64,000 nucleotides of DNA from IMG/VR virus record IMGVR_UViG_3300045988_132920, one strand, 5' to 3'. The position numbers and the translations under genes are program-made. A model generated the notes under the pieces. That model saw only the letters and a list, made by a program, of their open reading frames with translations. It was not told where the DNA came from and did no database searches. Source of the stretch: a virus. Positions 24,933-53,300 of this stretch are shown here, in pieces (the stretch's first letter is position 1; the number at the start of each line of letters is the position of its first letter).

Positions 24933-24968
24933 GTTGACATTTTAGCATTTTAATGATATAATGGATGT

Positions 24969-26429
24969 ATGGCAATATTTAGAACAAATATACGACATAC
25001 TCCAGCTAGAAGACCTGAGCCAAGTAACTTTGACTTAAGTCTTTATGAGCATCATACAGATGGTGATTGTATAGTTTTGACCAAGTACTTGAGTTGTTTA
25101 CAACATGTGATACTACCAAGTCCTGAGCAATACCCAAGTCTAAGAGTCTCTAATACATTTACTGTAGTTAATGATGTTGATATATTTGATTTTAATAATA
25201 TTCCTATTATACCAGATTTATCAGGGTTCTTAACCAGCCATGACTCCTCAGGAGGTCATATTCGTGAGGTTAGAAACTTGAGCACACCTGGAACTTCTGC
25301 CAGCAGTGCATGCTATGAGATGGAAAGTTTACCAGTGTACCCTGACCACATTGAAGACTTAGAGGAAGCATATTGTTTTAATAAGTCTAAGGAAACACCA
25401 GTACTACCTAGTAAAGCTAAAAACTTGCGTGGTGCATTTAATAGAAGCCATTTATTAAAAGCCCCTGAAATTCCAAGTGGTGTGACTACACTTGAATCAG
25501 CATTTTTAGGTTCAAAGGTCCATATACCAATGAAAATTATTCCAGGTACTGCAAAAGACTGTTCTAAGATATTCTTTGATGCTCACTTTCTTAAAGAAAT
25601 GCCTAACATAGGTTATGGGGTAGAAAACTTAGAATCTGCATTTTTTGATACTGATATTTGTGAAGTTAAAAGTATTCCAGAATCTGTAACTAACTTAGAT
25701 GGAGCTTTTGGTAGAACTAATATTATTAAACCTCCAAAGCTACCTAAAGGACTAACTCAACTAAATGAAACCTTTGTTGAGTGCTATGAACTTGCAAGTT
25801 CACCAGCTTTACCTGATGGGTTAATTAGCATGCACGGAGCCTTTAAGTCTTGTCATTCATTGAAAAGATGCAGACAGATGCCTAAGCACGTACTAGACTG
25901 TTCTGAGGCATACAGAGACTGTGTTCGCCTTGAAAAAGCATTACCGCCAGGTCCACTAGCATCCAAATGTCAGAATATGTACTTTGGTTGTTCATCTTTA
26001 ACTGAAGGTTGTGACATGCCTGATTCAGTTATACTTGCTTCTGGTTTTTATGGAAATTGTGTAAATCTAACTCACCCTGGTAAACTTGGTAAGTATGTAG
26101 AAGACTTGGAAGGTGCTTATAGGGGTTGCATACGACTAATTGAGGCACCTGAGATACCTGAGCATGTAAAGATTATTGCTGGCATGTTTCGTGGTTGTAA
26201 AGAGCTTAGCGGTGACATTATTATAAGGTCACGTCATATTATTAATATTAGTATGGCTTTTCCAGCACGTACACAAAGATTTAAGACAGTCTATATCCCT
26301 TTTTATAATGCTGATGGGACATACACCGACACATATAAGTCTTTTGAACAAAATCATTTCTTTGACTCTGCATATGAGCATTTGTATAATATGGAAGTAA
26401 AAGCATTAGAGTACTATGAAAATGATTAG
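24969..26429 (+). CDS. BspA-type leucine-rich-repeat protein, 486 aa.
   Basis: Repeats of the form L-x-x-A-F-x-x-x-x-I-x-x-x-x-IP-x-x-V-x-x-L (e.g. NLRGAFNRSHLLKAPEIPSGVTTLESAF). Promoter upstream (ttgaca 24933-24938, tataat 24956-24961). Confidence 0.8.
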   Translation: MAIFRTNIRHTPARRPEPSNFDLSLYEHHTDGDCIVLTKYLSCLQHVILPSPEQYPSLRVSNTFTVVNDVDIFDFNNIPIIPDLSGFLTSHDSSGGHIREVRNLSTPGTSASSACYEMESLPVYPDHIEDLEEAYCFNKSKETPVLPSKAKNLRGAFNRSHLLKAPEIPSGVTTLESAFLGSKVHIPMKIIPGTAKDCSKIFFDAHFLKEMPNIGYGVENLESAFFDTDICEVKSIPESVTNLDGAFGRTNIIKPPKLPKGLTQLNETFVECYELASSPALPDGLISMHGAFKSCHSLKRCRQMPKHVLDCSEAYRDCVRLEKALPPGPLASKCQNMYFGCSSLTEGCDMPDSVILASGFYGNCVNLTHPGKLGKYVEDLEGAYRGCIRLIEAPEIPEHVKIIAGMFRGCKELSGDIIIRSRHIINISMAFPARTQRFKTVYIPFYNADGTYTDTYKSFEQNHFFDSAYEHLYNMEVKALEYYEND

Positions 26430-26465
26430 GGTTGACACACAAGGTAAATAAAGGTATAATTAATC

Positions 26466-26696
26466 ATGTTGAACGTAGAACGTTACAAAATTAAAGGCAA
26501 AACGTATCGAAAAATAGGCGAGGAAACAGTAAATCCTGCTGATAGATGTATAGTAGATGAAATATGGATTCTGCAAAATCACCAAGGTCAAGAGTTTAGA
26601 CTTATGGTAAGGAGAGGTAGAAGCAATAGTTTTAGACTATACGAAAAAGATGGTAAATTTGTCTGTGGAACATACAGTATAAGTCAAGTTAAATAG
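26466..26696 (+). CDS. Hypothetical small protein, 76 aa.
   Basis: Promoter (ttgaca 26432-26437, tataat 26455-26460) plus an ORF. Confidence 0.5.
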   Translation: MLNVERYKIKGKTYRKIGEETVNPADRCIVDEIWILQNHQGQEFRLMVRRGRSNSFRLYEKDGKFVCGTYSISQVK

Positions 26697-26705: not shown

Positions 26706-27047
26706 ATGGCACATTTTATTAACATAACAGCTGATAAATTAGATATAACTAATTCTGAAGGTAATAACGCAATAGTGTTTCATATCCCTGGTCACTGTGC
26801 TGGGTGTAAAAGAGCTTTAGAGCTCATAAATGAAATGGCTTTTGATGGTAAATTGGCTGATTGGAATTTTTATTTAATTGATGCTGAAAATGATACTAAT
26901 AAAGTACTTATTGATAAATATGAGGCTACTATAGCTCCAACAATTATTACTTTTAAGTCAGGTGTTAAAATGAATAGAACAAATGGTTTAAAAGAGTTTA
27001 TACAACAAAAGGACAAGTTATTTACAAATGAAACTAATGCAAATTGA
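26706..27047 (+). CDS. Thioredoxin/glutaredoxin-like CxxC protein, 113 aa.
   Basis: RBS (taggagacttaaATG). A CAGC motif follows a beta-strand-like VFHIPGH segment, consistent with a thioredoxin-fold active site. Confidence 0.45.
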   Translation: MAHFINITADKLDITNSEGNNAIVFHIPGHCAGCKRALELINEMAFDGKLADWNFYLIDAENDTNKVLIDKYEATIAPTIITFKSGVKMNRTNGLKEFIQQKDKLFTNETNAN

Positions 27048-28392
27048 ATTTGACAAACACATCCCTAATGATGTCATAACTAAAATTCAAACTCTTGTAG
27101 AGGTATTTACTGATGTATACCCTGATAAAGATATTCAATTAGGTATTGTTGGTGGTGCACTACGAGATATTGCATTGGGTATTAAGCCAAGTGATTGGGA
27201 CTTATTCATAGTCGGATTAACTTCAAATGAAGTCATCCAAGCTCTCACTGCTAATACAAAGTGGGAGGCATTTGAGTCAGGACTCAATTTTTCTATTGTA
27301 AGATGGAATCATTGTGAGATTACGGTTATTGAATCATATGATGACCTATGTGAGGATAGAGCAAGACGTGACCTCAGAATAAACTCCCTATACTTGTCTT
27401 ATGATGGTGGTAGTGGCTGGTATCTATCGACTACTACGGAAATTAATAGAGATTTTGAGCAAGGTATTTTAAGCTCAGACGGAGACGTTGATAAAAAGTT
27501 TGCTCAAGACCCTATAAAAATCCTAAGGGTTCTTAGATTCGCAGCCAAATATCACTTTCAAATTGACAGAGATTTGCACTTTGACATTCTAAGGCTAAGA
27601 CACTTAGTTAAAGATAAGGCTATACCTAAGGATAGAATTTTCCATGAGTTAAAGAAGGGATTTACTTGTGGTAATGCTTATGGGTTTGTTAGACTTCTTG
27701 ATGAGTTTGAGTTACTTGAGCATTTCTTCCCAGCAGTACATGCTTTAAAAGGTATAGACGGTGGTCATTATCACAATGAACAAGTGTTTACACATGTTAT
27801 GTTTGCATTAAAAGCACTTGACCCTATTGACCTACCATTTGAAGTAAAACTTGCTGCACTCTACCATGATACTGGTAAGTATCACTGGGAGATTGTTGAC
27901 GGTAAACGTAGATTTGTTGGTCACGATAGACTTGGTAAGTACGCAGCTAAGCAGGACCTTAATAGATTACGTTTTCCTGAGCACATTAAACGTACTGTAA
28001 AGGCTTTAGTTTGGTTTCATATGCACCAGGTAGATGGTAAAAAATCTACACGTAAGCTGGCTATAGGTCTTGGTAAGTTTAATGTACCATTAAAATATTT
28101 CTTTTGGGTAAGATATGCTGATAATATGGGAAGTGCTGTGTATAAAACAGATTTCATGTATTATTGGAAGCTCTATAGACAGGCTCTTAGGTACATTAAT
28201 CCGAAACACGTTCCGTCTGTAAAAGACCTTGTAATAAATGGTCACACAATTATGGAAAAGTTTGGAATTAAACAAGGACCTATTATTGGTAAGGCTTTAA
28301 AGATTCTGTTTAACAAAGTTGAAAATGAAGAACTTGAAAATGAAGAATCTGCTTTATTAGAAGAACTAAAACGACTTTTACCTACACTTTGA
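27028..28392 (+). CDS. cca: tRNA nucleotidyltransferase (CCA-adding enzyme) with an HD domain.
   Basis: Class II nucleotidyltransferase head motif GGALRD (GGxVRD consensus) near the N-terminus. HD-domain motifs H...LYHDTGK follow, as in bacterial CCA-adding enzymes. It sits next to the tRNA array. Confidence 0.85.
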   Translation: MKLMQIEFDKHIPNDVITKIQTLVEVFTDVYPDKDIQLGIVGGALRDIALGIKPSDWDLFIVGLTSNEVIQALTANTKWEAFESGLNFSIVRWNHCEITVIESYDDLCEDRARRDLRINSLYLSYDGGSGWYLSTTTEINRDFEQGILSSDGDVDKKFAQDPIKILRVLRFAAKYHFQIDRDLHFDILRLRHLVKDKAIPKDRIFHELKKGFTCGNAYGFVRLLDEFELLEHFFPAVHALKGIDGGHYHNEQVFTHVMFALKALDPIDLPFEVKLAALYHDTGKYHWEIVDGKRRFVGHDRLGKYAAKQDLNRLRFPEHIKRTVKALVWFHMHQVDGKKSTRKLAIGLGKFNVPLKYFFWVRYADNMGSAVYKTDFMYYWKLYRQALRYINPKHVPSVKDLVINGHTIMEKFGIKQGPIIGKALKILFNKVENEELENEESALLEELKRLLPTL

Positions 28393-30158: not shown

Positions 30159-30234
30159 GCGGCTATCGTCTAATCGGTCAGGACGTCACCCTTTCAAGGT
30201 GGAAACGAGGGTTCAAACCCCTCTAGCCGTACCA
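30159..30234 (+). tRNA. tRNA-Glu (anticodon TTC).
   Basis: Cloverleaf read by eye: acceptor gcggcta/tagccgt, anticodon loop cTTTCaa, T-arm gaggg-ttcaaac-ccctc, CCA encoded. Confidence 0.8.
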
Positions 30235-30239
30235 TTTAT

Positions 30240-30314
30240 GGGGCATTAGTTCAGTTTGGTTAGAACATTGCACTGTCACTGCAAAGGTCAGGGATTCGAG
30301 CTCCCTATGCCCCG
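30240..30314 (+). tRNA. tRNA-Asp (anticodon GTC).
   Basis: Acceptor ggggcat/atgcccc, anticodon stem ttgca/tgcaa with loop ctGTCac, T-arm aggga-ttcgagc-tccct. Confidence 0.8.
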
Positions 30315-30550
30315 ATTTTAAAGTCTTATGACCTTGTTGTTATAGTCTGTGGATGGTTGCAAACTGAATCAGACCGAAATGGTACAAAGGACAGAAGTAG
30401 AGGTGCTCCTCTACCTGCATAGACCTACCCAGTTCTCAGTAATGGAATTGTATACTACGTTAACTTGTTGGCTGGTCACTAGGTGCAACTTTGACTAACA
30501 TATGCAGAGTTCAGTAGGTTCGACTCCTACCAAGGTTTTCAGTTTGTTAT

Positions 30551-30625
30551 GGGTCTGTAGCTCAATGGTGGAGCAGGGGACTCATAATCCCTTGGTTACA
30601 GGTTCGACTCCTGTCAGACCCACCA
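30551..30625 (+). tRNA. tRNA-Met (anticodon CAT).
   Basis: Acceptor gggtctg/cagaccc, anticodon loop ctCATaa, T-arm acagg-ttcgact-cctgt, CCA. Confidence 0.8.
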
Positions 30626-31075
30626 AGATTGAAAAGTTATTGTTCACTCGGTCTTTTCTTTGACTCCTTGTGGATTGTTAAAAGACCCACCTAGCTAGGG
30701 GATGGAATATACTAGGGTCCGTTAAGAGATTGTTGGACGTACGTGAAAACCGTATAAATACAAAAATCCATTACAGGTGAAAGTGCAACGGTGCACAGCT
30801 CTGGCTCATAACCAGGCACAGCCAAGCCCTTTTTTTGAAGGAACAACTTAGGTAGCCGTTCGACTCGGCAATATCCTGTATTGAATTCGGGTTGGTAACC
30901 TTTTCACTCATGATGTAGTGTTTGTGCTTGCAAGACGAACACTAAGTAGTGGACTCAGGGTGTGGTCTGAGGGGAAACAACACATAAACGGTACCGACTG
31001 AACTTAACGACTCCGAAGCAGTATAAACATTGGAGGGTCCGTTTGTGGGAGTTTTATAGTCAAACTTCCACACAT

Positions 31076-31151
31076 GCCGAAGTAGCTCAAATGGTAGAGC
31101 AGCTCACTTGTAATGAGACGGTTGTGGGTTCAAGTCCTGCCTTCGGCACCA
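31076..31151 (+). tRNA. tRNA-Thr (anticodon TGT).
   Basis: Acceptor gccgaag/cttcggc, loop ctTGTaa, T-arm ttcaagt, CCA. Confidence 0.75.
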
Positions 31152-31155
31152 ATAT

Positions 31156-31262
31156 TTGATGCTTTAGTTTAAGATTCCCTATCAGTATACTAGTTAGCAT
31201 AGGGAGAAGGCGAAAATACAGGTCCGCAAGCCTGAGATGTTAGTTCGACTCTAGCAAGTATC
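31156..31262 (+). ncRNA. Aberrant tRNA-like element of about 105 nt (7-bp acceptor-like pairing, T-arm gttag-ttcgact-ctagc, internal 7-bp hairpin, non-7-nt anticodon loop).
   Basis: gatgctt pairs with aagtatc and a canonical T-arm is present. The total length and an inserted tccctat...ataggga hairpin do not fit a standard cloverleaf. Possible insertion-containing or degenerate tRNA. Confidence 0.3.
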
Positions 31263-31275
31263 ATCAATTACTTAA

Positions 31276-31350
31276 TGGCAAGTAGCTCAATGGCAGAGCT
31301 CTCGGCTGTTAACCGAGCGGTTGGAGGTTCGAGTCCTCTCTTGCCAGCCA
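31276..31350 (+). tRNA. tRNA-Asn (anticodon GTT).
   Basis: Acceptor tggcaag/cttgcca, loop ctGTTaa, T-arm ggagg-ttcgagt-cctct, CCA. Confidence 0.8.
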
Positions 31351-31372
31351 ATTAACATAAAAGGAGATTAAT

Positions 31373-31630
31373 ATGTACCGATTAGTTAGAGCTTGGAAAG
31401 TCTGGAGAAATAAGAATAAATACAAGAATTCACCAGAATCAATTAAACAGGACATCTATGAGATAATAACGACTAAGTTATTTAAACAACCTCAAGAATG
31501 TCTAAGAGCTTTAGATGAATTTGAAGGTATAGTAAGTTATGACTATGATTCTAAGGGTAATTTTGAAGCAGTATTAGCTAGTGGTACAAAAATTAAGGTT
31601 TGTGTAACTTTAACAACTATTGAAATATAG
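31373..31630 (+). CDS. Hypothetical small basic protein, 85 aa.
   Basis: RBS (aaaggagattaatATG) directly after tRNA-Asn. Confidence 0.55.
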   Translation: MYRLVRAWKVWRNKNKYKNSPESIKQDIYEIITTKLFKQPQECLRALDEFEGIVSYDYDSKGNFEAVLASGTKIKVCVTLTTIEI

Positions 31631-31737
31631 GTGAGAGCCGAATATCAGTTGGTCGGACGTGTCTGTAAAACATGTGCCTAATAAGCCGTTGGGGGTGCAA
31701 CTCCCTTCTCACCTACCATATAATGAAAGGAACTCTT

Positions 31738-32046
31738 ATGAAGTTATTAATGTCTTTATTAGCATTAAGTTTGATGACATCTTCCGTATATGCTCAGAAT
31801 TACTTTCAAACACAAGGTCTTTCTAAGGAAGTTGTTAGTACAGATGACATTATAAATATGTGTAATTACTGTTCACATCATTATTTTATATACAACGTAA
31901 ATCATAAGTATAGATATAAAGTTATTTATGATAATGAGCTTAAATGTAATAATGACTATAATGCACTAGTGCTAAAAATGCAAAATGATGAATATAGTAA
32001 ATGTATAAAGCACGGTGGTGGTACTGCTTGTGCATTACGAAAATAG
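31738..32046 (+). CDS. Secreted small Cys-containing protein, about 102 aa with signal peptide. Paralogue of 34607..34885.
   Basis: Start reassigned to ATG 31738 (RBS gaaagga). Signal peptide MKLLMSLLALSLMTSSVYAQ. C-terminal motif SKCIKHGGGTACALRK. Confidence 0.6.
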   Translation: MKLLMSLLALSLMTSSVYAQNYFQTQGLSKEVVSTDDIINMCNYCSHHYFIYNVNHKYRYKVIYDNELKCNNDYNALVLKMQNDEYSKCIKHGGGTACALRK

Positions 32047-32203
32047 CTTAAGGGAACTGCGGTCCTGAAAACACTAAAAGGCATGCTCCATTACAGAAAA
32101 TCCTAGGTAAGAACCATATTTTAGTGTCAAACTGGCAGAGCTGTAAGTCTAGCTAACTTATAGGAAGTTTAGCAGGGTGGTGTCTGAAAACCCTGTAATC
32201 ATG

Positions 32204-32278
32204 GGGGCACATGTACCAAGGTGGCGAGATTCCCTTGCAAGGAAACTGTGGTGAGTTCGATTCTCATTGTCTCCACCA
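32204..32278 (+). tRNA. tRNA-Ala (anticodon TGC), weak D-arm.
   Basis: Acceptor gggggca/tgtctcc with G-U pairs, anticodon loop ctTGCaa, T-arm gtgag-ttcgatt-ctcat, CCA. D-stem pairing is poor. Confidence 0.5.
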
Positions 32279-32342
32279 ATTAAAACAAACTAATAGGAGA
32301 ATACAAATGAAACTTAAATCACGATGGTGTAATAAACAATAT

Positions 32343-32418
32343 GCGTGTATAGTTTAATGGTTTAGAATTCTGGTCTCCAAAACCAGAGATGTAGGTTCGA
32401 TTCCTGCTACACGTGCCA
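32343..32418 (+). tRNA. tRNA-Trp (anticodon CCA).
   Basis: Acceptor gcgtgta/tacacgt, anticodon stem ctggt/accag with loop ctCCAaa, T-arm ttcgatt, CCA. Confidence 0.8.
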
Positions 32419-32422
32419 ATAC

Positions 32423-32495
32423 GGGTGTGGAGCTCGGTTGGTTGAGCAGCTGGCTTTTAACCAGTTGGTTGCAGGTTCGATTCCTGTCGCACCCA
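32423..32495 (+). tRNA. tRNA-Lys (anticodon TTT).
   Basis: Acceptor gggtgtg/cgcaccc, loop ctTTTaa, T-arm gcagg-ttcgatt-cctgt. No encoded CCA. Confidence 0.75.
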
Positions 32496-32522
32496 ATTTT
32501 TACATAAAAAGGAGAATAAATT

Positions 32523-32756
32523 ATGGCAGTTTTTGCAGTAGCATTAAACAATGAAGGCTATGGATGTGGGTTTTACATCTGGCAAGCCGAAGACGAAGAA
32601 GCTCTTATAGCAGACCTTAAAAAAGAGTGGAATCGAGACCCAGACAATGATGTAGTACAAGCCTGGATAGATGAAGAATGGTTATTCTTCTCAAAAATTG
32701 ATGAAGAAGCATTTAAAGGTGAAAACTATTTTGAGGTATATAATAACTTCTCTTAA
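32523..32756 (+). CDS. Hypothetical small acidic protein, 77 aa.
   Basis: RBS (aaaggagaataaattATG). Its end abuts tRNA-Val. Confidence 0.55.
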   Translation: MAVFAVALNNEGYGCGFYIWQAEDEEALIADLKKEWNRDPDNDVVQAWIDEEWLFFSKIDEEAFKGENYFEVYNNFS

Positions 32757-32832
32757 GCTCGCTTAACTCAATCGGTAGAGTGTCTCCCTTACAAGGAGGA
32801 AGTTGTAGGTTCGAGTCCTACAGCGAGCACCA
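32757..32832 (+). tRNA. tRNA-Val (anticodon TAC).
   Basis: Acceptor gctcgct/agcgagc, loop ctTACaa, T-arm gtagg-ttcgagt-cctac, CCA. Confidence 0.8.
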
Positions 32833-32877
32833 TATTTGTTAAATTTTAATAGGTATAACAAGTATGGAGACAATATA

Positions 32878-33210
32878 ATGGCAGAATTATTTACAGCAGT
32901 TGAAGCTAAAGAAATCACAGATGCAGCATGTGATAAATATGCTGAAATCGTAAGAATAATCAAAGATAAAGCTGCAAACAAACAGTACGAAGTATTATTC
33001 ACAAACGAAGAAGTGTCTGATGAAATCTTTACTAAACTAAGAGAAGGCGGTTTCTACATCAATAGAGCAGCTCGTGGAGTTGTTATTGCGTGGGATACTG
33101 CTGTTAATGCAGACGACAAAAAAGAAGAAGTTACTACACCAGACCCTGGTAAAGAAGAAGATGGTAGTCAAGGCGGTAATGAGCAAGGTGAAGACCAAGT
33201 TACTGAATAG
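32878..33210 (+). CDS. Hypothetical protein with an acidic C-terminus, about 110 aa.
   Basis: Start reassigned to ATG 32878 (RBS ggagacaatataATG). A terminator hairpin at 33231-33262 follows. Confidence 0.55.
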   Translation: MAELFTAVEAKEITDAACDKYAEIVRIIKDKAANKQYEVLFTNEEVSDEIFTKLREGGFYINRAARGVVIAWDTAVNADDKKEEVTTPDPGKEEDGSQGGNEQGEDQVTE

Positions 33211-33265
33211 TCTGCAACTCAAAATCAAATAGGTTTGGAAGGAGCCTAATAGGCTCCTTCCTTAT

Positions 33266-33341
33266 GCCGAGGTAGCTCAGTTGGTAGAGCACCTGTCTGA
33301 AGAACAGGGTGTCACTGGTTCAATTCCAGTCCTCGGCACCA
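33266..33341 (+). tRNA. tRNA-Phe (anticodon GAA).
   Basis: Acceptor gccgagg/cctcggc, D-arm gctcagttggtagagc, loop ctGAAga, T-arm actgg-ttcaatt-ccagt, CCA. Confidence 0.85.
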
Positions 33342-33442
33342 TTTAAAAGTTTGGGTGGTCGTCTAAGTAAAGGACACGAAAATCGAAAATGATGGGGATT
33401 TATTAAGTGACGTCACATATTCAACCTATCCCACCCACCCAT

Positions 33443-33519
33443 ATCCTCGTAGCTCAATAGGACAGAGCATGGAGCTTCTACCTCCAGTGTTGGGGGTTCG
33501 ATTCCCTCCGAGGATGCCA
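33443..33519 (+). tRNA. tRNA-Arg (anticodon TCT).
   Basis: Acceptor atcctcg/cgaggat, loop ctTCTac, T-arm ggggg-ttcgatt-ccctc, CCA. Confidence 0.75.
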
Positions 33520-33606
33520 CTAAGAATCACATGCTAAATGAAGGCTACTCACGGACCAATAAGTAGGTCAGATGAGTTCTGGAGGTCCCACGTGGACTTC
33601 CATTAT

Positions 33607-33680
33607 GCGGATATAGTTTAAAGGTAAAATTCCTCCTTGCCATGGAGATGTTGCGAGTTCGATTCTCGCTATCCGCTCCA
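33607..33680 (+). tRNA. tRNA-Gly (anticodon GCC).
   Basis: Acceptor gcggata/tatccgc, loop ttGCCat, T-arm gcgag-ttcgatt-ctcgc, CCA. Confidence 0.8.
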
Positions 33681-33707
33681 ATAAATAAAAACGAAAGGAA
33701 CACAATT

Positions 33708-33992
33708 ATGATTGATGCAAACTTAGCCGTGCTTGATAAATTAGAAGACCTTATTAAATGTGATGGTAGGTTAACAATTACTTTAAACAAAACGGATTTA
33801 ATGGTTCTCCATAGTGCAATCCATAGTGAAAAGGTTTATATAGATAAACTTTTTAAAGGTTTTGCAGAAGGTGATAATGATGGAGCTGATTTAGATAGCT
33901 TTTGTCAATTACTCGGAGAAATTAGAGCTGACTCTGTTTCAGATATGGAGACAATTATACAAACTATAGTTAATAGAATTTTAGAAACTTAA
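33708..33992 (+). CDS. Hypothetical small protein, about 94 aa.
   Basis: Start reassigned to ATG 33708 (RBS aaacgaaaggaac). The track's 33642 start would overlap tRNA-Gly. Confidence 0.55.
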   Translation: MIDANLAVLDKLEDLIKCDGRLTITLNKTDLMVLHSAIHSEKVYIDKLFKGFAEGDNDGADLDSFCQLLGEIRADSVSDMETIIQTIVNRILET

Positions 33993-34001
33993 CTATATTA
34001 T

Positions 34002-34076
34002 TGCGAATATGGTCTAAAGGCTATGATTTCTGGCTTCCAACCAGACGGTCAGGGTTCGATTCCCTGTATTCGCTCC
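34002..34076 (+). tRNA. tRNA-Gly (anticodon TCC).
   Basis: Acceptor gcgaata/tattcgc, anticodon stem tctgg/ccaga with loop ctTCCaa, T-arm caggg-ttcgatt-ccctg, CCA. Confidence 0.8.
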
Positions 34077-34254
34077 ATTCCAGGTTGCTTAGTTAGCATA
34101 GGTCATACCAAGTGCACAGTATGGCTATGGGTAGGAATAACTCCCTACCCTAACTGGAAGCAACCTATGTCGTAGGACCACGTACAGTGGAGTGCTTGTA
34201 TGAAGAAGCTGCGTGGATAGTATAACAGACATTAAACTCCTTTGGTAGATATGA

Positions 34255-34331
34255 GTCTGGGTAGTCAAATTGGTAGAGACAGGGGACTTAAAATCCTCGT
34301 TTTGTGGGTTCGACTCCCACCCTAGACACCA
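34255..34331 (+). tRNA. tRNA with anticodon TAA (Leu, UUA) but a short class-I variable loop.
   Basis: Acceptor gtctggg/cctagac, anticodon stem gggga/tcctc with loop ctTAAaa, 5-nt variable loop, T-arm gtggg-ttcgact-cccac, A73, CCA. Confidence 0.65.
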
Positions 34332-34335
34332 ATAA

Positions 34336-34412
34336 GCCCCTGTAGTCAAATAGGTAAAGACGGCTGCCTTAGAAGCAGTGTTCTGCGAGTTCGACTCTCG
34401 CTGGGGGCACCA
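34336..34412 (+). tRNA. tRNA with anticodon TAG (Leu, CUA) and a short variable loop.
   Basis: Acceptor gcccctg/tgggggc, loop ctTAGaa, T-arm gcgag-ttcgact-ctcgc, A73, CCA. Confidence 0.65.
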
Positions 34413-34417
34413 ATTAT

Positions 34418-34492
34418 ACCCTTGTAGGCTAACGGAGAAACCGCAACACTACGAATGTTGAGTTCTAGGTTCGATTCCTAGTGGGGGTACCA
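34418..34492 (+). tRNA. tRNA-Arg (anticodon ACG).
   Basis: Anticodon stem caaca/tgttg with loop ctACGaa, T-arm ctagg-ttcgatt-cctag, acceptor with G-U pairs, CCA. Confidence 0.65.
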
Positions 34493-34493
34493 T

Positions 34494-34566
34494 GCCAGTA
34501 TGATGGAATGGTATACATACCAAGCTCAAACCTTGGGTTCTGCAAGTTCGACTCTTGCTACTGGCA
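34494..34566 (+). tRNA. tRNA with anticodon CAA (Leu, UUG) and a short variable loop.
   Basis: Acceptor gccagta/tactggc, anticodon stem ccaag/cttgg with loop ctCAAac, T-arm gcaag-ttcgact-cttgc, A73. No encoded CCA. Confidence 0.65.
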
Positions 34567-34606
34567 TTAGGTTGACAATGTTAAGTTAATATGATATATT
34601 TCTTGT

Positions 34607-34885
34607 ATGAAAAAGACTATTTTACTTACAATGATTTTATTAATGGGGACTGTTACATTAGCAGACGATTGGTATACAAACCCATCAAGTCCTACAAATG
34701 TAATGATGAATCCAATGAATGCTTGGCATCCAGCTAATATTTATCACAACACTGTACTTAACCCTTATAAATACTATGAGGAAGAAGACAGTTATGACAG
34801 AGCTACTAGAATTAAGACTAAGAAGTACAACTCTTGCGTGAAGTATGGTGGTGGAGATGCGTGCAGAAGTATATTAAATAACTAG
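34607..34885 (+). CDS. Secreted small Cys-containing protein, 92 aa with signal peptide. Paralogue of 31738..32046. Probably expressed from a leaderless mRNA.
   Basis: Signal peptide MKKTILLTMILLMGTVTLA. C-terminal NSCVKYGGGDACRSILNN. Promoter ttgaca 34572-34577, tatatt 34595-34600, which places the transcription start at about the ATG. Confidence 0.6.
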   Translation: MKKTILLTMILLMGTVTLADDWYTNPSSPTNVMMNPMNAWHPANIYHNTVLNPYKYYEEEDSYDRATRIKTKKYNSCVKYGGGDACRSILNN

Positions 34886-34958
34886 GTGTAGTGCAGTTTG
34901 GTAGCATGCCTGTTTTGGGAACAGGCGGTCGGGGGTTCAAATCCCTCCACCTAGACCA
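34882..34958 (+). tRNA. tRNA-Pro (anticodon TGG).
   Basis: Acceptor ctaggtg/cacctag, anticodon stem cctgt/acagg with loop ttTGGga, T-arm ggggg-ttcaaat-ccctc, CCA. Confidence 0.75.
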
Positions 34959-34963
34959 ATTAA

Positions 34964-35035
34964 TCCCCGATAGTTTAATCGGCAGAACATCTGATTTTGG
35001 TTCAGAAGGTCGAGGTTCGAGTCCTTGTTGGGGAA
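34964..35035 (+). tRNA. tRNA-Gln (anticodon TTG).
   Basis: Acceptor tccccga/ttgggga, anticodon stem tctga/tcaga with loop ttTTGgt, T-arm cgagg-ttcgagt-ccttg. Confidence 0.65.
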
Positions 35036-35108
35036 TTTTAACTTGGGTTGACAGATATTCAATTTAATGATATAATAACGAAGTAAACATACGAAAAAGG
35101 AAATACAT

Positions 35109-36140
35109 ATGACAACAGAACTTGTAACAAATGAGGATTTGTTCTACTCTTATCCGTCTATTGAAAATTCTTATAGGGAAGAATTCATCAATAAGATTTA
35201 TGCTCACGGATACGGAGATGAACGTTACTACGTAACTGAAAAAATCCATGGCTCAAACACGCAGCTCTCTTATGATGGTAATGAATTCAAGTATGGCACA
35301 CGTAGCCATTATCTTATTGAGAATGAGAAATGCTATAACGTACAGCCCTTACTTGACAAAGTTAAACCTGTATTAGAAGCTGAATACAAAAGATTGAAAG
35401 AAGACGTACCAACCTTAAGAAATGTTATTATCTATGGTGAGGTGTATGGTGGATGCTATCCACACCCTGATGTAAAGGTAAATAATCATGCTTCTAAAGT
35501 ACAAAAAGGTGTTTACTACTCACCTAATAATGAATGGTCAGCATTTGATTTTTGCTATGTAGATGATAATGGTAAGCACTTTTATACAGGTTCACAATTC
35601 ATTAAACTGTGTCAAGTAAATAACATTAGCACTACACCTGTATTAGCTATTGTTAATACACTAAAAGAAGCACTTGAGTTTAATAACGCAGGTGAGTCTA
35701 CCATAGGTCCACTTCTAGGGTACCCTGAGCTTGAAAATAACACTATGGAAGGGGTTGTAATTAAACCCCTTGATAAAGACCTCTGGATGGGTCAAACTCG
35801 TGTAGTAATCAAGAACAAAAATGATAAGTTCAAAGAAAAATCACACGAAAAGAAAGTAAACATCCAAATTGAACTACCAGAGTGTGTTACAAAGGCTTTG
35901 GAGGCTTCTGTACCCTATATAAATGAGAATCGTGTAAATAACGTTATTTCTCATTTAGGTGAAGTGACCTATAAGGACACAGGACGAATCATTGGTGAGA
36001 CTAACAAAGATGTTCTTGCAGTGATTCAAGATGAAGTACCTGAGTATAATCTTATGGAAAAGCAAGAACGTAAGCAATTTACAAAGTTGCTAAATAACGA
36101 AGTTGCTAAAGTTGTACGTAAGGTGATGCAGGTACGTTAA
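35109..36140 (+). CDS. RNA ligase of the T4 Rnl2 family.
   Basis: N-terminal YPSIENSYREEFINKIYAHG and the nucleotidyltransferase motif I TEKIHGSN (T4 Rnl2: EKIHGTN). Later motifs RVVIKNKNDKFKEK and YINENRVNNVISHLGEV closely parallel T4 Rnl2. Promoter ttgaca 35048-35053, tataat 35071-35076. Confidence 0.85.
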   Translation: MTTELVTNEDLFYSYPSIENSYREEFINKIYAHGYGDERYYVTEKIHGSNTQLSYDGNEFKYGTRSHYLIENEKCYNVQPLLDKVKPVLEAEYKRLKEDVPTLRNVIIYGEVYGGCYPHPDVKVNNHASKVQKGVYYSPNNEWSAFDFCYVDDNGKHFYTGSQFIKLCQVNNISTTPVLAIVNTLKEALEFNNAGESTIGPLLGYPELENNTMEGVVIKPLDKDLWMGQTRVVIKNKNDKFKEKSHEKKVNIQIELPECVTKALEASVPYINENRVNNVISHLGEVTYKDTGRIIGETNKDVLAVIQDEVPEYNLMEKQERKQFTKLLNNEVAKVVRKVMQVR

Positions 36141-36173
36141 TCAGGGTAAATTACCCTGATTATGCACCCTTAG

Positions 36174-36248
36174 CCAAGTGGTCAAGGCGGAGGTCTGCAA
36201 AACCTCTATCGTTGGTTCAAATCCAACAGGGTGCTCCATTTGGAGAGT
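36174..36248 (+). tRNA. tRNA-Cys (anticodon GCA).
   Basis: Acceptor gcaccct/agggtgc, anticodon stem gaggt/acctc with loop ctGCAaa, T-arm gttgg-ttcaaat-ccaac, CCA. Confidence 0.8.
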
Positions 36249-36351
36249 AAACTTCAGGGGTCTGAAGGCTGGTTTGCTAAACCAAGTGTTCACGTAAGTG
36301 GATGAGTTTCAAGTACTCTGCTCTCCTCCATTTATAACAAAGGAATAAGTT

Positions 36352-36732
36352 ATGATATATACAGGTTATTTTGCTAAAACAAAAGAATATGAGGCAGCAG
36401 GACTATTCCCTATAGGTGTTGCTGGTAAAACTCCAGATTTCTTTAAGAATATGGTTTGGAGAGATGTAGCACCAAGATGGGACCACTTTAAACGGTGGAA
36501 ATCTGGTGAGATAGATAACTTTCAATATTCTGAACTTTATACAACTATGCTCAACAAGCTAGATAAAGAAGATACAAGGAAGTTTATCCAAGAGCTTCTT
36601 CAGATTAATGAGAATATCATATTCTTATGTTATGAAAAACCAGGTACTTTCTGTCATAGACACATACTAGCAGATTGGCTAGAATCTGAGATAGGAGTGG
36701 GACCTGTTGATGAATATAAATTGGAGGTGTAA
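36352..36732 (+). CDS. DUF488 (YeaO-like) family protein.
   Basis: The C-terminal FCHRHILADWLES matches the DUF488 signature (CHR...LADWL). The N-terminus MIYTGYFAK fits the family. Confidence 0.45.
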   Translation: MIYTGYFAKTKEYEAAGLFPIGVAGKTPDFFKNMVWRDVAPRWDHFKRWKSGEIDNFQYSELYTTMLNKLDKEDTRKFIQELLQINENIIFLCYEKPGTFCHRHILADWLESEIGVGPVDEYKLEV

Positions 36733-36815
36733 CCCTAATTGGTAAGGGGGTAGTCTTGAAAACTACTAGTAGTCGGGAAACTGACGTGCTGGTTCGAGTC
36801 CAGTCACCTCCTCCA
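36724..36815 (+). tRNA. tRNA-Ser (anticodon TGA), class II with a long variable arm.
   Basis: Acceptor ggaggtg/cacctcc, anticodon stem gtagt/actac with loop ctTGAaa, long variable arm agtcgggaaactgac, T-arm ttcgagt, CCA. It overlaps the stop of 36352..36732. Confidence 0.8.
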
Positions 36816-36832
36816 GTATAGAAAGGACAAAT

Positions 36833-37192
36833 ATGTCACTTCAAGAAAACCTAGCATACTTAATGGAGTTCAACTACAAAAAGCTATTTAAAGGTGTTCC
36901 TAAAAATTACTATTTGTCTAAGGAGGACAGGCAAGAGCTATTAGATGCTATTGAATGTGCTCAAGAGACTTTTGGTAGGCAACATGGTGACTTTATCTTG
37001 GCAGATGGTAAGTTTACTCCCCACAAAGCACTTGAGTTTTGTAATGTTCGCTGCACAGATACTGTTGAAGAAGCAATTTGTAATTACGTACTTGCTGCAT
37101 TGAATCCAAAATATTCAGAGTACGAACAATTTGTTCAGTATACAGTAGATGAACTAAAAAAGTATGAGAATGGGTACAGAAATAAGAAATAA
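36833..37192 (+). CDS. Hypothetical protein, 119 aa.
   Basis: RBS (agaaaggacaaatATG). Confidence 0.55.
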   Translation: MSLQENLAYLMEFNYKKLFKGVPKNYYLSKEDRQELLDAIECAQETFGRQHGDFILADGKFTPHKALEFCNVRCTDTVEEAICNYVLAALNPKYSEYEQFVQYTVDELKKYENGYRNKK

Positions 37193-37265
37193 TGCTGGGT
37201 GTCCGAGTGGTTTAGGAGCTGCACTCATACCGCAGTTTACGTGGGTTCAAATCCCACCTCAGCAA
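37193..37265 (+). tRNA. tRNA with a CAT anticodon (Met/fMet or lysidine-Ile type), second copy.
   Basis: Acceptor tgctggg/ctcagca, anticodon loop ctCATac, T-arm gtggg-ttcaaat-cccac. The last anticodon-stem pair is mismatched. Confidence 0.55.
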
Positions 37266-37286
37266 TTATTTATGAATGGGGTCGTG

Positions 37287-37363
37287 GCAATGTAATGTGT
37301 CGTTAGCTCAGTTTGGTTAGAGCCCTGGATTGTGGTTCCAGTTGCATGGGTTCAAATCCCATA
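37287..37363 (+). tRNA. tRNA-His (anticodon GTG).
   Basis: Acceptor gtgtcgt/acgacac, anticodon stem ctgga/tccag with loop ttGTGgt, T-arm atggg-ttcaaat-cccat, CCA. Confidence 0.8.
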
Positions 37364-37478
37364 CGACACCCCATTTATAGAGTTTAGGTAAGGTCTACAT
37401 CACCTTCGGTAGCGAGTCGACACTACTGAAAATGGCAGTCGGGAGTGAGGCAACGACTAAAATATTTCTCACGAACAT

Positions 37479-37553
37479 GGTCTTGTAGCTCAGCGGTAGA
37501 GCACTCGGCTGATAACCGAGAGGTCGAAGGGTCAGCACCTTCCAAGACCACCA
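37479..37553 (+). tRNA. tRNA-Ile (anticodon GAT).
   Basis: Acceptor ggtcttg/caagacc, D-arm gctcagcggtagagc, anticodon stem ctcgg/ccgag with loop ctGATaa, CCA. Non-canonical T-loop gtcagca. Confidence 0.75.
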
Positions 37554-37596
37554 TTATTACTATGAAATTGTATATTCTAACTCATGGAGGGACAAA

Positions 37597-38250
37597 ATGA
37601 CACTTGACCATACTGTGAGACTTTTTAATACTACAATCAATGAGGCTTTTGCTGAGCTTAAAGAGCATCATGTACAGCCCGATTGTATTATTACCCATAT
37701 AAACAACAACTGCTTTGGTGGTGAAATTACCATTGAAAAAATGAGAGACCTTGGCGAAAGATTCAAAGATGTTCTTATTGGTCAAGGTCATATTTATTTG
37801 TATATTGATGATATTCAAGACTTAGGTATAGTCATGGTAGGCATGCAAGAAGCTGGGTTAACGTTTAAGAATATCCTAACAATACCTTACACAGATAAGA
37901 TAGTACAAGCTGGATGTAACACACGTAAATACTTTGATGGTGCTGTAAAACGAGTGTTATACTTTACTAAGTATGAAGGACATTTCTTAAACCATACAAA
38001 ACTATTTATTAAAATAAAGGCTACTAGTATGCACCCTGCTGTGTGGAATTGGTTTAAGGGTACAATCTCAGACTCTTACAAAAATATCATGCAAATATCT
38101 ACTCAGCACGCAGATACAATACTTGACCCATTTATGTTAACTGATGCCATTGGTAAAGCAACTGTTGAGGCAGACAGACACTACATCGGAATCAACCCTG
38201 GAAAAAATTTTAACGATATAAAGCATAGCTTAGAAATGTTACAAGTTTAA
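37597..38250 (+). CDS. Hypothetical protein, 217 aa.
   Basis: RBS (ggagggacaaaATG) after tRNA-Ile. Confidence 0.6.
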   Translation: MTLDHTVRLFNTTINEAFAELKEHHVQPDCIITHINNNCFGGEITIEKMRDLGERFKDVLIGQGHIYLYIDDIQDLGIVMVGMQEAGLTFKNILTIPYTDKIVQAGCNTRKYFDGAVKRVLYFTKYEGHFLNHTKLFIKIKATSMHPAVWNWFKGTISDSYKNIMQISTQHADTILDPFMLTDAIGKATVEADRHYIGINPGKNFNDIKHSLEMLQV

Positions 38251-38548
38251 GGGGTTGACAAATAAATTATCTTATGTTATTATATTTATATAAGGCAAAC
38301 GTCAGGCTAAGTAATCTACAGAACGGTCTGGTGGCAGATATAATTGCCAAGAGCCTCACTATACCGTTGCCGAGCGGTTCTTACATATGGTGAGACAACT
38401 CAGGAGATTGAGACCTCGTGTAAGAAGGTAGCTATTATAGCAAAAAAAAACATCAACTCCACGTTGTAGATAACCTCGCATAAGGGAACGAAAGACCTTG
38501 TTCAACATGCAGCTGACCAGTGAACAGCTTACCAAACACTGGACGTAG

Positions 38549-38622
38549 CGGAGTGGAGCAGTAGTAGCTCGCCAGTCTCATAAGCTGGAGGTCGTGGGTG
38601 CAACTCCCACCTCTCGCAACCA
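38549..38622 (+). ncRNA. tRNA-like element with a CAT anticodon loop but imperfect acceptor stem (possible third CAT tRNA or pseudo-tRNA).
   Basis: Anticodon stem ccagt/gctgg with loop ctCATaa, T-arm gtggg-tgcaact-cccac. Acceptor pairing is poor and the 3' end reads ...aacca. A roughly 250-nt ORF-free leader and a promoter lie upstream; a terminator follows. Confidence 0.4.
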
Positions 38623-41077: not shown

Positions 41078-41100
41078 ATTTGTCAACCCGATTGGGTTGA
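41078..41100. promoter_or_regulatory. Palindromic divergent-promoter core ttgtcaacccgattgggttgaca, with overlapping -35 hexamers on both strands.
   Basis: It lies between the minus-strand AdoMetDC gene and the plus-strand membrane-ORF operon. Perfect 10-bp inverted arms surround gatt. Confidence 0.55.
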
Positions 41101-41151
41101 CAGAATACCAAATTAATGATATGATTGAAGTACAACAACAAGGAGATAATC

Positions 41152-41310
41152 ATGAAATTATTACTATTACTTTTATTTTGCTTATTCTGTGGAATATCCT
41201 TAGATGGATTAACAGTAACAGGTGTTGTACAAGCACTAAATCAACATCCATTTTGGACACTTGTATTCTTAGGTGCTATATTCTCATCAACCTATGTAAA
41301 GGTAGGGTAA
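41152..41310 (+). CDS. Small hydrophobic membrane protein, 52 aa.
   Basis: Strong RBS aggag 7 nt upstream of ATG 41152. Two hydrophobic segments. The stop overlaps the next start (TAATG). Confidence 0.5.
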   Translation: MKLLLLLLFCLFCGISLDGLTVTGVVQALNQHPFWTLVFLGAIFSSTYVKVG

Positions 41311-45383: not shown

Positions 45384-45481
45384 ACTACTGTTATAATGTC
45401 GTATGTAATTACAATGAGGTAGCATAATGCTACCTCTTTCCTTAGGTTGACAGTTTAGATAAATTATGCTAAACTTAAAGT

Positions 45482-45979
45482 ATGTTTGAAGTAAGCAATG
45501 TATTATTTTTAGAAGAATTAACAGCAAGTTTATACATGTATAAAAGCATGGAGACTGTTTATTACAGATGTGACTGTATTCCAATTCATTTTACAGACTT
45601 GTTTAAATCACGTCACTTACTACAGACAAAGCACTATATAAATAGCAGAAGCAGTTACCATGATACAAAAGGGCAAGTTAACGGTACATTCATTCATAAC
45701 AATATGCTGTTCGTACAAATTGAACATGCAGAAAACTTCGATTATGTGGTAAGACGAACAAAATGGTTTGAAAAACCACGCAATATACAAGTTGAGCCGT
45801 TTGAGTGGTGCTACACATACTCCCCAGAAGTTATAGATGGTAATTTTGGTTTTGATGATGAACACGAAATTGGTCAACTTGGTTTAAGATGGGATGCACC
45901 TGAGTTAGCTGTAAGTTACCACTTAGAGTGGGGTGAACCTTTCCCATATGAACGACATTCTATAAATTACTGGAGATAA
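45482..45979 (+). CDS. Hypothetical protein, 165 aa.
   Basis: Promoter ttgaca 45445-45450 upstream. Confidence 0.5.
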   Translation: MFEVSNVLFLEELTASLYMYKSMETVYYRCDCIPIHFTDLFKSRHLLQTKHYINSRSSYHDTKGQVNGTFIHNNMLFVQIEHAENFDYVVRRTKWFEKPRNIQVEPFEWCYTYSPEVIDGNFGFDDEHEIGQLGLRWDAPELAVSYHLEWGEPFPYERHSINYWR

Positions 45980-50463: not shown

Positions 50464-50711
50464 GCTAACGGCTGAAACCCGCTGTGTGACTGGGTTATAG
50501 AAAGGTCGAAGTTTTCAGAAAATCCTAAAATTTCTGTGAGCCTCTAAAGACACACCCGACCACACCTGCTTTTCACCCTTCTATCGCCCTTTTTTCACTT
50601 CAAAAAATTGTTACAATAATTTACATAAAACATGCTTGCATGCTATTGACATTTAACTTTTTTAGTGTAATAATAGTATTATAAAGTTAAGCAAACGAAA
50701 GGGAAACGACC

Positions 50712-51185
50712 ATGACAACTTATGAAACACTTTACAACGCAATCGCAAAAGCGAACGAAAAACAAGGACTAAACGCAATGGACATCGCAAGGGGTACGAA
50801 GGCAACAGGCTCAAAAAATGGCATTAAGTACCTAAACATCGGGGGCGTAGTAGTTGCTTACTCTAGCGACAAGCAAGCATTACAAGCTAACAGAAACAGG
50901 GCATGCTCAATCGCTAGACAACAAACGGCAAGCATGAGAAACGGCATGTCTTATGGAGTACCTAACTGTGTAAGCCAAGTATATAGCGACTATTCAGCAT
51001 TTGTAGGAATTGAAAAAATCGGATTTGCAAGCCAAGCATACAAACTAGCCTACATCAGAAAATACTTGCAAGGTGAATTTTACTTCTTAATCGGTCAAGG
51101 CATAAGCAATAACTTCCACGAGATAATAAACGGAGATTACAACATAGTAAACAGTTTAGAAGATAAAAGGGATATATGGGGCTAA
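50712..51185 (+). CDS. Early-region hypothetical protein, 157 aa.
   Basis: Conserved leader aaacgaaagggaaacgaccATG. Promoter ttgaca 50646-50651. Confidence 0.6.
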   Translation: MTTYETLYNAIAKANEKQGLNAMDIARGTKATGSKNGIKYLNIGGVVVAYSSDKQALQANRNRACSIARQQTASMRNGMSYGVPNCVSQVYSDYSAFVGIEKIGFASQAYKLAYIRKYLQGEFYFLIGQGISNNFHEIINGDYNIVNSLEDKRDIWG

Positions 51186-51250
51186 AACCCCATTCCCTAC
51201 TGGGTTTTAACAATAAGTGATACATACAATTAAGTAAAGGAGAATTAAAA

Positions 51251-51616
51251 ATGAAACAAGCACAAGTAAACTACTCAACAATTACAGAAACTATCATTGA
51301 TGATGTAAAGCAAGCTATTATTGACATACAGGCAGGTGAAGATGATTGTTTTATGAAGTTCTTAAACAATGGCATGGTTGGTTATAGCCTTGCATGTTCA
51401 GGTGGTTATTCAATCATTTACGATTGTACAAATGACAGGCTAGTAGTAGCATGGTTGTTAAAGGTTAGAGGGTCAAACATTCATGATTGTATTGACGGGT
51501 CATGGGGTCAAGGTTATTATTTCGATAATAATGGGGGTAGTTACCTTAATGAACGATATGACATTGACAAGGTTGTAGATTTATTTGTCCGTAAAGCACT
51601 AGGGATTAGGGATTAA
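51251..51616 (+). CDS. Early-region hypothetical protein, 121 aa.
   Basis: RBS aaggagaattaaaaATG. Terminator hairpins 51611-51676 downstream. Confidence 0.6.
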   Translation: MKQAQVNYSTITETIIDDVKQAIIDIQAGEDDCFMKFLNNGMVGYSLACSGGYSIIYDCTNDRLVVAWLLKVRGSNIHDCIDGSWGQGYYFDNNGGSYLNERYDIDKVVDLFVRKALGIRD

Positions 51617-53299: not shown

Positions 53300-53300
53300 A

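Follow-up and report, generated by a model that had tools for sequence, protein, structure and literature searches.

The window analysed here, the whole 64,000-nucleotide (nt; 64-kb) stretch of the virus record IMGVR_UViG_3300045988_132920, is a segment of a large phage genome with a GC content of 35%, and its tRNA island contains two open reading frames (ORFs) whose products are predicted to be small exported proteins with a shared C-terminal cysteine loop. A preliminary description of the sequence had presented ORF1 (31738-32046) and ORF2 (34607-34885) as paralogous Cys mini-proteins with signal peptides, embedded in the tRNA island. Both ORFs are present at these coordinates and both lie inside the island, ORF1 after tRNA-Tyr and ORF2 between tRNA-Leu(CAA) and tRNA-Pro. 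The label of Cys mini-protein suits ORF1, which has five Cys, and fits ORF2 less well, whose only Cys are the pair in the loop. The two genes and the elements around them are:

31629 to 31718, plus strand: tRNA-Tyr, directly upstream of ORF1 and ending 19 nt before it
31725 to 31731, plus strand: Shine-Dalgarno-like sequence GAAAGGA, 6 nt before the ATG of ORF1
31738 to 32046, plus strand: ORF1, a 102-amino-acid (aa) precursor; predicted mature protein 83 aa, 9.8 kDa, isoelectric point (pI) 8.3, 5 Cys
31738 to 31794, plus strand: ORF1 predicted signal peptide MKLLMSLLALSLMTSSVYA, predicted cleavage between A19 and Q20 (MKLLMSLLALSLMTSSVYA followed by QN)
31909 to 31947, plus strand: ORF1 degenerate first module YRYKVIYDNELKC, which aligns with module 1 of two-module relatives and has Lys in place of the first Cys
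31993 to 32031, plus strand: ORF1 C-terminal Cys-x8-Cys module YSKCIKHGGGTAC
34493 to 34567, plus strand: tRNA-Leu(CAA), directly upstream of the ORF2 promoter
34572 to 34600, plus strand: predicted ORF2 promoter, TTGACA (34572-34577), a 17-nt spacer with TG at 34592-34593, and TATATT (34595-34600); it matches the consensus at 11 of 12 positions and also carries the extended -10 TG
34607 to 34885, plus strand: ORF2, a 92-aa precursor; predicted mature protein 73 aa, 8.5 kDa, pI 6.9, 2 Cys
34607 to 34663, plus strand: ORF2 predicted signal peptide MKKTILLTMILLMGTVTLA, predicted cleavage between A19 and D20 (MKKTILLTMILLMGTVTLA followed by DD)
34664 to 34774, plus strand: N-terminal segment of mature ORF2, DDWYTNPSSPTNVMMNPMNAWHPANIYHNTVLNPYKY, aromatic and rich in Asn-Pro, with hardly any change across four lineages and still discernible in the relative P0005
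34826 to 34864, plus strand: ORF2 C-terminal Cys-x8-Cys module YNSCVKYGGGDAC
34882 to 34958, plus strand: tRNA-Pro(TGG), which follows ORF2

Both N-termini follow the rules for Sec export and cleavage by signal peptidase I (SPase I), with a basic n-region, an uncharged hydrophobic core and small residues at positions -3 and -1 (AxA-like). The n-, h- and c-regions parse as MK, LLMSLLALSLM and TSSVYA (followed by Q) in ORF1, and as MKK, TILLTMILLMGTV and TLA (followed by D) in ORF2. When all ORFs of at least 50 aa in the window were ranked in a crude signal-peptide scan, ORF2 came out best (heuristic score 4.17) and ORF1 second best (3.99), and the remaining matches were antisense ORFs inside larger genes. 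Beyond the signal peptide both proteins are hydrophilic. No lipobox was found: ORF1, ORF2 and the relatives P0001 to P0007 all lack a Cys in the signal peptide or directly behind it.

Comparison with the related phage L001 added an evolutionary signature to these rules. The ratio of nonsynonymous to synonymous divergence (dN/dS) is ~0.8-1.8 in the signal-peptide codons, with ORF1 at ~0.8, and hydrophobicity is kept, whereas the mature part of ORF1 gives 0.14. In ORF2, six of the nine amino-acid changes lie in the signal peptide, all of them keeping the segment hydrophobic. A fast-changing leader joined to a conserved mature part is what is expected of a cleaved signal peptide, so the heuristic rules and the substitution pattern together bear out the proposal that both ORFs carry Sec signal peptides, and both products are probably exported from the cell. 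A separate observation concerns the synonymous sites, where divergence (dS) from L001 is ~0.09 in the signal-peptide codons (31738-31794 and 34607-34663), 0.6-0.87 in the mature codons and 0.05-0.39 in neighbouring genes. The low synonymous divergence at the 5' ends could reflect nucleotide-level constraint or mosaic recombination.

ORF1 and ORF2 are real genes under purifying selection. Most of their differences from L001 fall at third codon positions (24 of 40 in ORF1), and dN/dS is 0.175 for ORF1 and 0.069 overall for ORF2. The mature part of ORF2 reaches 0.02 at a dS of 0.87, making it more constrained than the neighbouring gene for RNA ligase 2 (Rnl2; 0.07). Metagenomes contain relatives of both proteins: the ORF1 orthologue P0001 is 84% identical, and P0002, which is identical to the ORF2 protein, is found on 23 contigs, the longest of 239 kb, with several records labelled human gut metagenome. 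A further ORF2 orthologue, in P0003 and L016, is 65% identical. Among deposited phages, tblastn with ORF1 and ORF2 gave nothing meaningful even at E<=10, and megablast of 31600-35100 against 50,697 of them returned no close relative. The unit tRNA-Leu(CAA)-promoter-ORF2-tRNA-Pro is kept in four lineages, and ORF2 is retained more widely than ORF1, as the divergent island of L016 is without ORF1 at the corresponding position.

Near their C-termini the two ORFs share the motif Y-x-x-C-[IV]-K-[HY]-G-G-G-x-A-C, the core of which, C-x-K-x-G-G-G-x-A-C, is found exactly twice when the window is translated in all six frames (32002-32031 and 34835-34864). The preliminary description had noticed this motif and read the pair as paralogues, and both statements stand up: the motif is found nowhere else in the window, and the two proteins resemble each other beyond chance. 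BLASTP aligns ORF1 with ORF2 at E=6e-6 over 19 residues, and the Smith-Waterman score of the two mature sequences was reached by 4 of 20,000 shuffles, indicating that the resemblance is real. Each ORF is closer to a protein of another phage than to its neighbour, however, with ORF1 matching P0004 over the full length (E=2e-6) and ORF2 matching P0005 over the full length (E=7e-9), which makes them old paralogues from two subfamilies and not the product of a recent local duplication.

The shared element can be described as a 13-residue module with the consensus [Y/L]-x-x-C-[ILV]-x-[YHN]-[GK]-G-G-x-[AG]-C, present in one or two copies and usually followed by a short basic tail (for example KKKRKK, ALRK or KSIK). 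A HMMER search with a 30-column profile of the module against 1.84 billion representative proteins returned only six proteins at E<=1e-3, three of them new (P0006, P0007 and P0008) and each of these with two modules. All six are small, begin with a hydrophobic stretch resembling a signal, and have one or two modules. P0004, found with a degenerate DNA motif pattern, is a 90-aa ORF in a 115-kb IMG/VR contig and has a very similar signal peptide (MKRTLIVLLSLLVGSSVYA) followed by the tandem modules KYERCLKYGGGKAC and RYNRCIQYKGGKAC. P0005, from a word-indexed profile search, has 126 aa, two modules and an Asn-Pro-rich N-terminus like that of ORF2. Comparable signals of 18-24 residues are found in P0004 to P0007; the P0003 record has a truncated start, and in P0008 the hydrophobic segment lies further in. 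Most mature members are basic (pI 8.3-9.6), with ORF2 at 6.9. A probable further member is the C-terminus of a 156-aa ORF at 1116-1586 on the minus strand of IMGVR_UViG_3300035006_000011 (L028), which carries the module NNPYNPKYNNCVFHGGGAACEKVKRN (27 bits). By eye, this ORF runs from a T5orf172-like N-terminal domain through a hydrophobic segment to the C-terminal module; either these parts are fused or a small overlapping gene begins at an internal Met.

The family alignment points to an ancestor in which a signal peptide was followed by a variable N-terminal region and then by modules 1 and 2. Judged from the alignments, ORF1 is a degenerate form of the two-module protein, and ORF2 is a one-module form that has lost module 1. 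Every recovered context is phage-like, and the family has apparently been found so far only in such contexts. P0004 lies two ORFs downstream of RtcB in a gut phage contig that also encodes Rnl2 and NAPRTase, and the pairing of Rnl2 with RtcB in the window is likewise present in this distant phage. The other members sit in long arrays of small co-directional ORFs that have no annotation.

Several candidate relatives were set aside. The sole match of the motif pattern in 185,579 prokaryotic species genomes (one per species), L017, was taken as chance, as it lies inside a 217-aa ORF that is ClpP-like by eye; the degenerate-pattern matches L025, L026, L027 and L029 in IMG/VR were also taken as chance, as they contain stops or sit inside an unrelated large protein. 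A related-locus search with the family alignment gave 95 pattern matches, none of which was confirmed. No family in Pfam, PHROG, NCBIfam, PADLOC or the PDB fits the members consistently. Sub-threshold matches of single members to DUF6090, phrog_8894, CHCH, Paramecium_SA, Cas5d and ZorB were taken as chance, and the one to phrog_8894 is not shared by P0001 despite its 84% identity. A CHCH or twin CX9C hairpin was rejected on three counts: the spacing here is CX8C with a central GGG breaker, ORF2 has a single motif, and Pfam CHCH matches one of 11 members (E=0.015). The family is thus a previously undescribed group of modular, small exported proteins (6-12 kDa) that is absent from the annotation libraries searched. 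Its novelty lies in this family context, as a rare, unannotated family within the known small exported accessory proteins of phages. Being compact and easily synthesised, and coming from large uncultivated human-gut phages, it is a concrete target for finding a new envelope interaction.

The expression signals of the two genes differ. ORF1 has its Shine-Dalgarno-like sequence at 31725-31731 and no strong promoter of its own, the best match nearby in a promoter scan being only 9 of 12 positions at 31521-31549, and it is probably co-transcribed with the upstream tRNAs. A longer ORF1 starting at 31672 was rejected, as that start overlaps tRNA-Tyr and is without a Shine-Dalgarno sequence, whereas the start at 31738 has one. 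For ORF2, the -10 element ends 6 nt before the ATG (34607) and there is no Shine-Dalgarno sequence. In L001, L014 and L016 the promoter sequence and the 6-nt distance from -10 to ATG are conserved, while the six nucleotides themselves vary (tcttgt, tcttat, tattat); all four orthologues start with ATG and none has a Shine-Dalgarno sequence.

The earlier suggestion of a leaderless ORF2 mRNA, made from the -10 position, is therefore strengthened: the geometry is exact, is conserved in four lineages and is common to three more genes in the window. These encode a 486-aa BspA-type leucine-rich-repeat (LRR) protein (ATG at 24969), a 76-aa ORF (26466) and a 165-aa ORF (45482), and their start regions (24934-24971, 26432-26468 and 45447-45484) share a TTAGG(G)TTGACA context, a distance of 5-6 nt between -10 and ATG, and the lack of a Shine-Dalgarno sequence. 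These promoter positions make a good case, if short of proof, for an ORF2 transcript whose first nucleotide is the A of the ATG or a direct neighbour of it, and this phage appears to make repeated use of leaderless expression. The family members of other phages carry strong Shine-Dalgarno sequences of the GGAG type. In leaderless phage mRNAs such as lambda cI transcribed from pRM, the -10 lies 5-7 nt upstream of a 5'-terminal AUG without a Shine-Dalgarno sequence (PMC10491246). ORF2 has the same -10/AUG geometry and likewise no Shine-Dalgarno sequence; unlike lambda cI, it encodes a secretory precursor and is directly followed by tRNA genes in the same transcription unit, with a start site that is predicted. 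It offers a clean natural example of a secretory protein encoded by a (predicted) leaderless mRNA within a tRNA operon.

The 3' end of ORF2 is equally tight. Its TAG stop (34883-34885) coincides with acceptor-stem nucleotides 2-4 of tRNA-Pro, an overlap of 4 nt in the window, and in L001 (8884-8887), L014 (994-997) and L016 (3006-3009) the stop abuts the 5' end of the tRNA with a gap of 0 nt. With the stop codon inside or abutting tRNA-Pro, cleavage by RNase P would leave an ORF2 message ending at or just before the stop. A bolder proposal is that ORF2 synthesis is coupled to tRNA-Pro processing by RNase P and to ribosome rescue, with the Cys-loop proteins forming a new class of envelope effectors. 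We regard this combination as a long shot; if true, the coupling of exported-protein synthesis to tRNA processing would be a new regulatory principle.

The C-terminal module can be pictured from the ORF2 model obtained with AlphaFold2 and a shallow family alignment, where a GGG turn connects a long helix with a short one at the C-terminus, with a block-mean predicted local distance difference test score (pLDDT) of ~75. Because ORF2 has only the two module Cys, these can pair only with each other or between molecules. The simplest reading of the model is an intramodule Cys-x8-Cys disulfide, which would staple a helix-GGG-turn-helix hairpin. ORF1 has in addition the sequence C-N-Y-C-S-H-H at residues 42-48 (31861-31881), shared with P0001, and the equivalent place in P0004 reads H-R-H-C-C-G-C. 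This region could be a metal-binding or redox site, or could supply a free thiol for intermolecular bonding.

Phage proteins that act outside the cytoplasm govern by whom a cell that already carries an infection can be infected again, as well as the behaviour of the envelope in the course of infection; few of them are understood (such as Spackle, Imm, RI, Llp and Cor). The reading that we rank first, with a probability of roughly 40%, is that the Cys-loop proteins modify or protect the envelope of the infected cell, either by superinfection exclusion or by blocking an envelope enzyme or receptor. Host RNA polymerase would transcribe the tRNA island, and the precursors would be exported by Sec and cleaved after Ala19, steps that are included in this estimate. 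The two module Cys would then form the disulfide that staples the hairpin, and the mature proteins of 8-10 kDa would engage a conserved target in the cell envelope. In ORF2, the aromatic, Asn-Pro-rich N-terminal 37 residues, near-invariant in the four lineages, are probably the binding epitope, and the C-terminal loop a stabilising or anchoring element. The strong purifying selection points to a conserved target, probably of the host, rather than a rapidly co-evolving phage target. If the function is ordinary exclusion, the gain is a new family name.

The closest functional analogue is T4 Spackle (Sp, gene 61.3), an early periplasmic protein whose ~97-aa precursor loses its signal by cleavage to give a helical mature form of 75 aa with one disulfide; it acts alone in the envelope and inhibits the gp5 lysozyme of a superinfecting phage by binding it (PMC7677548). 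ORF2 resembles it in its 92-aa precursor, 73-aa mature form, predicted helical C-terminus and single Cys pair. It differs in that Cys-x8-Cys lies inside one module, whereas the C29-C81 bond of Spackle crosses the bundle, and in that the family here is modular with 1-2 repeats. Neither profile nor single-sequence searches of the PDB retrieved Spackle at E<=10, and no PHROG or Pfam match was found. A second parallel is given by T5 Llp and the Cor-type lipoproteins, which are phage-encoded, small, early and exported proteins that protect the infected cell in its envelope by receptor masking (PMC9586334). These differ from the family in being lipoproteins with a lipobox Cys at +1, which the family members do not have, and there is no homology between them.

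Several points weigh against an envelope-protection role. No homology bears on function, and cleavage and export rest on heuristics. The functions put forward in the preliminary description (superinfection exclusion, receptor masking, a toxin or a signal) are hypotheses, and homology favours none of them. The structural models are poor (mean pLDDT 39 for ORF1 and 56 for ORF2), and Foldseek found no match for the ORF2 model in the PDB. The odd number of Cys in ORF1 (five, as in P0001) and its CxxC-x-HH cluster are left unexplained by the model, and no partner gene is conserved across the family contexts. If the host is an obligate anaerobe without Dsb enzymes, the disulfide becomes harder to assume, and a host unable to form disulfides would call for a new view of what the Cys pair does. 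Exclusion proteins directed by one phage against another often evolve fast, whereas mature ORF2 is very strongly conserved; this is mild evidence against a classic arms race between phages, and a conserved host target is the better fit.

Among the alternatives, the proteins might stay at the cytoplasmic membrane as uncleaved signal-anchor or membrane-associated proteins, acting like T4 Imm or as modulators of host transporters or defence sensors. The hydrophobic segments, counted with the c-region, span 16-17 residues, the segment of P0008 is interior, and the 156-aa protein of L028, whose N-terminal domain is apparently cytoplasmic, ends in a hydrophobic segment with the module behind it. The uncharged cores, however, measure only 8-13 residues, good -3/-1 residues (V-Y-A and T-L-A) stand at position 19 in both paralogues, and the h-regions, unlike the mature parts, are free to change, leaving membrane anchoring rather unlikely.

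We also consider it unlikely that the proteins are secreted bacteriocin-like or membrane-active cationic disulfide-loop peptides, released against competitors or uninfected neighbours. Small size, a Sec leader and a disulfide are the general features of Sec-dependent class II bacteriocins, which the family resembles in all three, and most of its members are basic (pI 8.3-9.6) with a basic tail after the loop. Mature ORF2, at pI 6.9, is neutral and not obviously amphipathic, however, and the members have no YGNGV box, no bacteriocin signature and no bacteriocin match in Pfam or NCBIfam. Nor do the contexts share a conserved candidate immunity gene next to the family gene.

Lysis inhibition depends on small periplasmic domains, and in size and periplasmic targeting the proteins resemble the T4 antiholin RI, so they might be periplasmic regulators of lysis timing that act on a holin, endolysin or spanin. 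Their genes, however, lie in a tRNA/RNA-repair region under host-type promoters rather than in a lysis cassette, no context has an adjacent holin or endolysin, and the proteins show neither similarity to RI nor an N-terminus of the signal-arrest-release (SAR) type. A part in lysis timing is accordingly improbable.

A remnant or offshoot of group XIII/XIV phospholipase A2 (PLA2), keeping the C-terminal disulfide loop as a lipid- or membrane-binding element, was suggested by the profile comparisons. The family profile matched TbSP1 (PDB 4AUP) at E=0.013 and 0.063, confined to the C-terminal loop, where 4AUP reads LYNECAKYSGLESWKGVACRKI. In hhalign, the module aligned with the PLA2 segment Y-N-E-C-A-K-Y-S-G...G-V-A-C-R-K-I at 37-40% probability and a pairwise E of ~3e-4, over only ~20 columns. 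Like TbSP1 and the Streptomyces violaceoruber enzyme (1LWB/1FAZ), the family members are predicted to be small, secreted, helical disulfide proteins, and they share the pattern Y-x-x-C-x-x-Y-x-G...x-A-C; they differ in the loop, which has 8 residues here and 10-13 in PLA2, and in lacking the catalytic CxRHDFGYRN region. ORF1 has the loosely similar C-S-H-H-Y-F-I-Y-N, in which Tyr replaces the Asp of the catalytic His-Asp motif, hhalign leaves this region unaligned, and the other members have nothing comparable. No member matches Pfam Phospholip_A2_3 at E<=10, and the module hidden Markov model (HMM) gives the TbSP1 fragment no score. Membership of the PLA2 family was rejected because the catalytic motif is missing and Pfam gives no support; the likeness is a weak structural analogy, and descent from PLA2 is very improbable.

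Least probable of all are extracellular communication peptides (arbitrium-like pro-peptides) or host-directed gut signals, an idea that fits small Sec-exported phage products and was raised in the preliminary description. No gene for an AimR- or TPR-like receptor lies next to them, conservation extends over all 73 aa of mature ORF2 and is not limited to a short C-terminal peptide, and the phage looks lytic and very large.

Relatives of the phage's Rnl2, exonuclease V-like helicase and RtcB found with tblastn are only 27-39% identical and come from phages of many host phyla, and are thus uninformative. By our own reasoning, the short signal peptides, sigma-70 consensus promoters and use of Shine-Dalgarno sequences argue against Bacteroidota and are compatible with a Gram-negative host. 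That the phage is very large is suggested by the longest ORF2-bearing contig (239 kb); in keeping with a lytic phage, a non-exhaustive look through the window showed no lysogeny genes. A literature search found no description of this phage clade.

The window holds 25 tRNA genes, spanning 30159-38618, together with tail-fibre-like genes, an exonuclease V/Dda-like helicase and a set of genes for tRNA and RNA repair in and around the island:

27028 to 28392: CCA-adding enzyme
35109 to 36140: Rnl2
36352 to 36732: DUF488-N3a protein
46881 to 48065: RtcB

The neighbours of ORF1 and ORF2 are tRNAs, Rnl2, the DUF488 protein and small ORFs without library matches. Between the window and L001, the non-coding stretch from ORF1 to tRNA-Trp (32047-32281) shows 98% identity, against only 87% for the adjoining coding sequence of ORF1 (dS ~0.6). 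This conservation suggests a conserved non-coding RNA; the predicted fold is no stabler than shuffled sequence (z = 0.83). Within it, at 32205-32278, is a tRNA-like element just under the Rfam threshold (28.5 versus 29 bits), for which ARAGORN makes no call. Inspection by eye shows a CUUGCAA anticodon loop (UGC, Ala), a G3:U70 pair, a well-formed T-arm and an encoded CCA, with three mismatches at the base of the acceptor stem, and the island is otherwise without a tRNA-Ala. Directly after tRNA-Cys, a tRNA-Sec-like match at 36242-36326 (39.1 bits against a gathering score of 47), also without an ARAGORN call, may be a tRNA with a long variable arm or a pseudogene.

Further into the window, a 52-aa ORF at 41152-41310 (MKLLLLLLFCLFCGISLDG...FWTLVFLGAIFSS...) has two hydrophobic segments, a Shine-Dalgarno sequence and its own promoter matching 11 of 12 positions (41097-41125), and may be another small membrane protein. 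Strong plus-strand promoter matches number 53 in the window. The region 50600-64000 is dense in near-perfect TTGACA-17-TATAAT promoters (for example at 53416-53444, 54939-54967, 58167-58195 and 59204-59232), which precede a repeated leader (...ATGTGATA.ATAAACGAAAGGGAA...ATG) and are often paired with a divergent minus-strand TTGACA-16-TACAAT.

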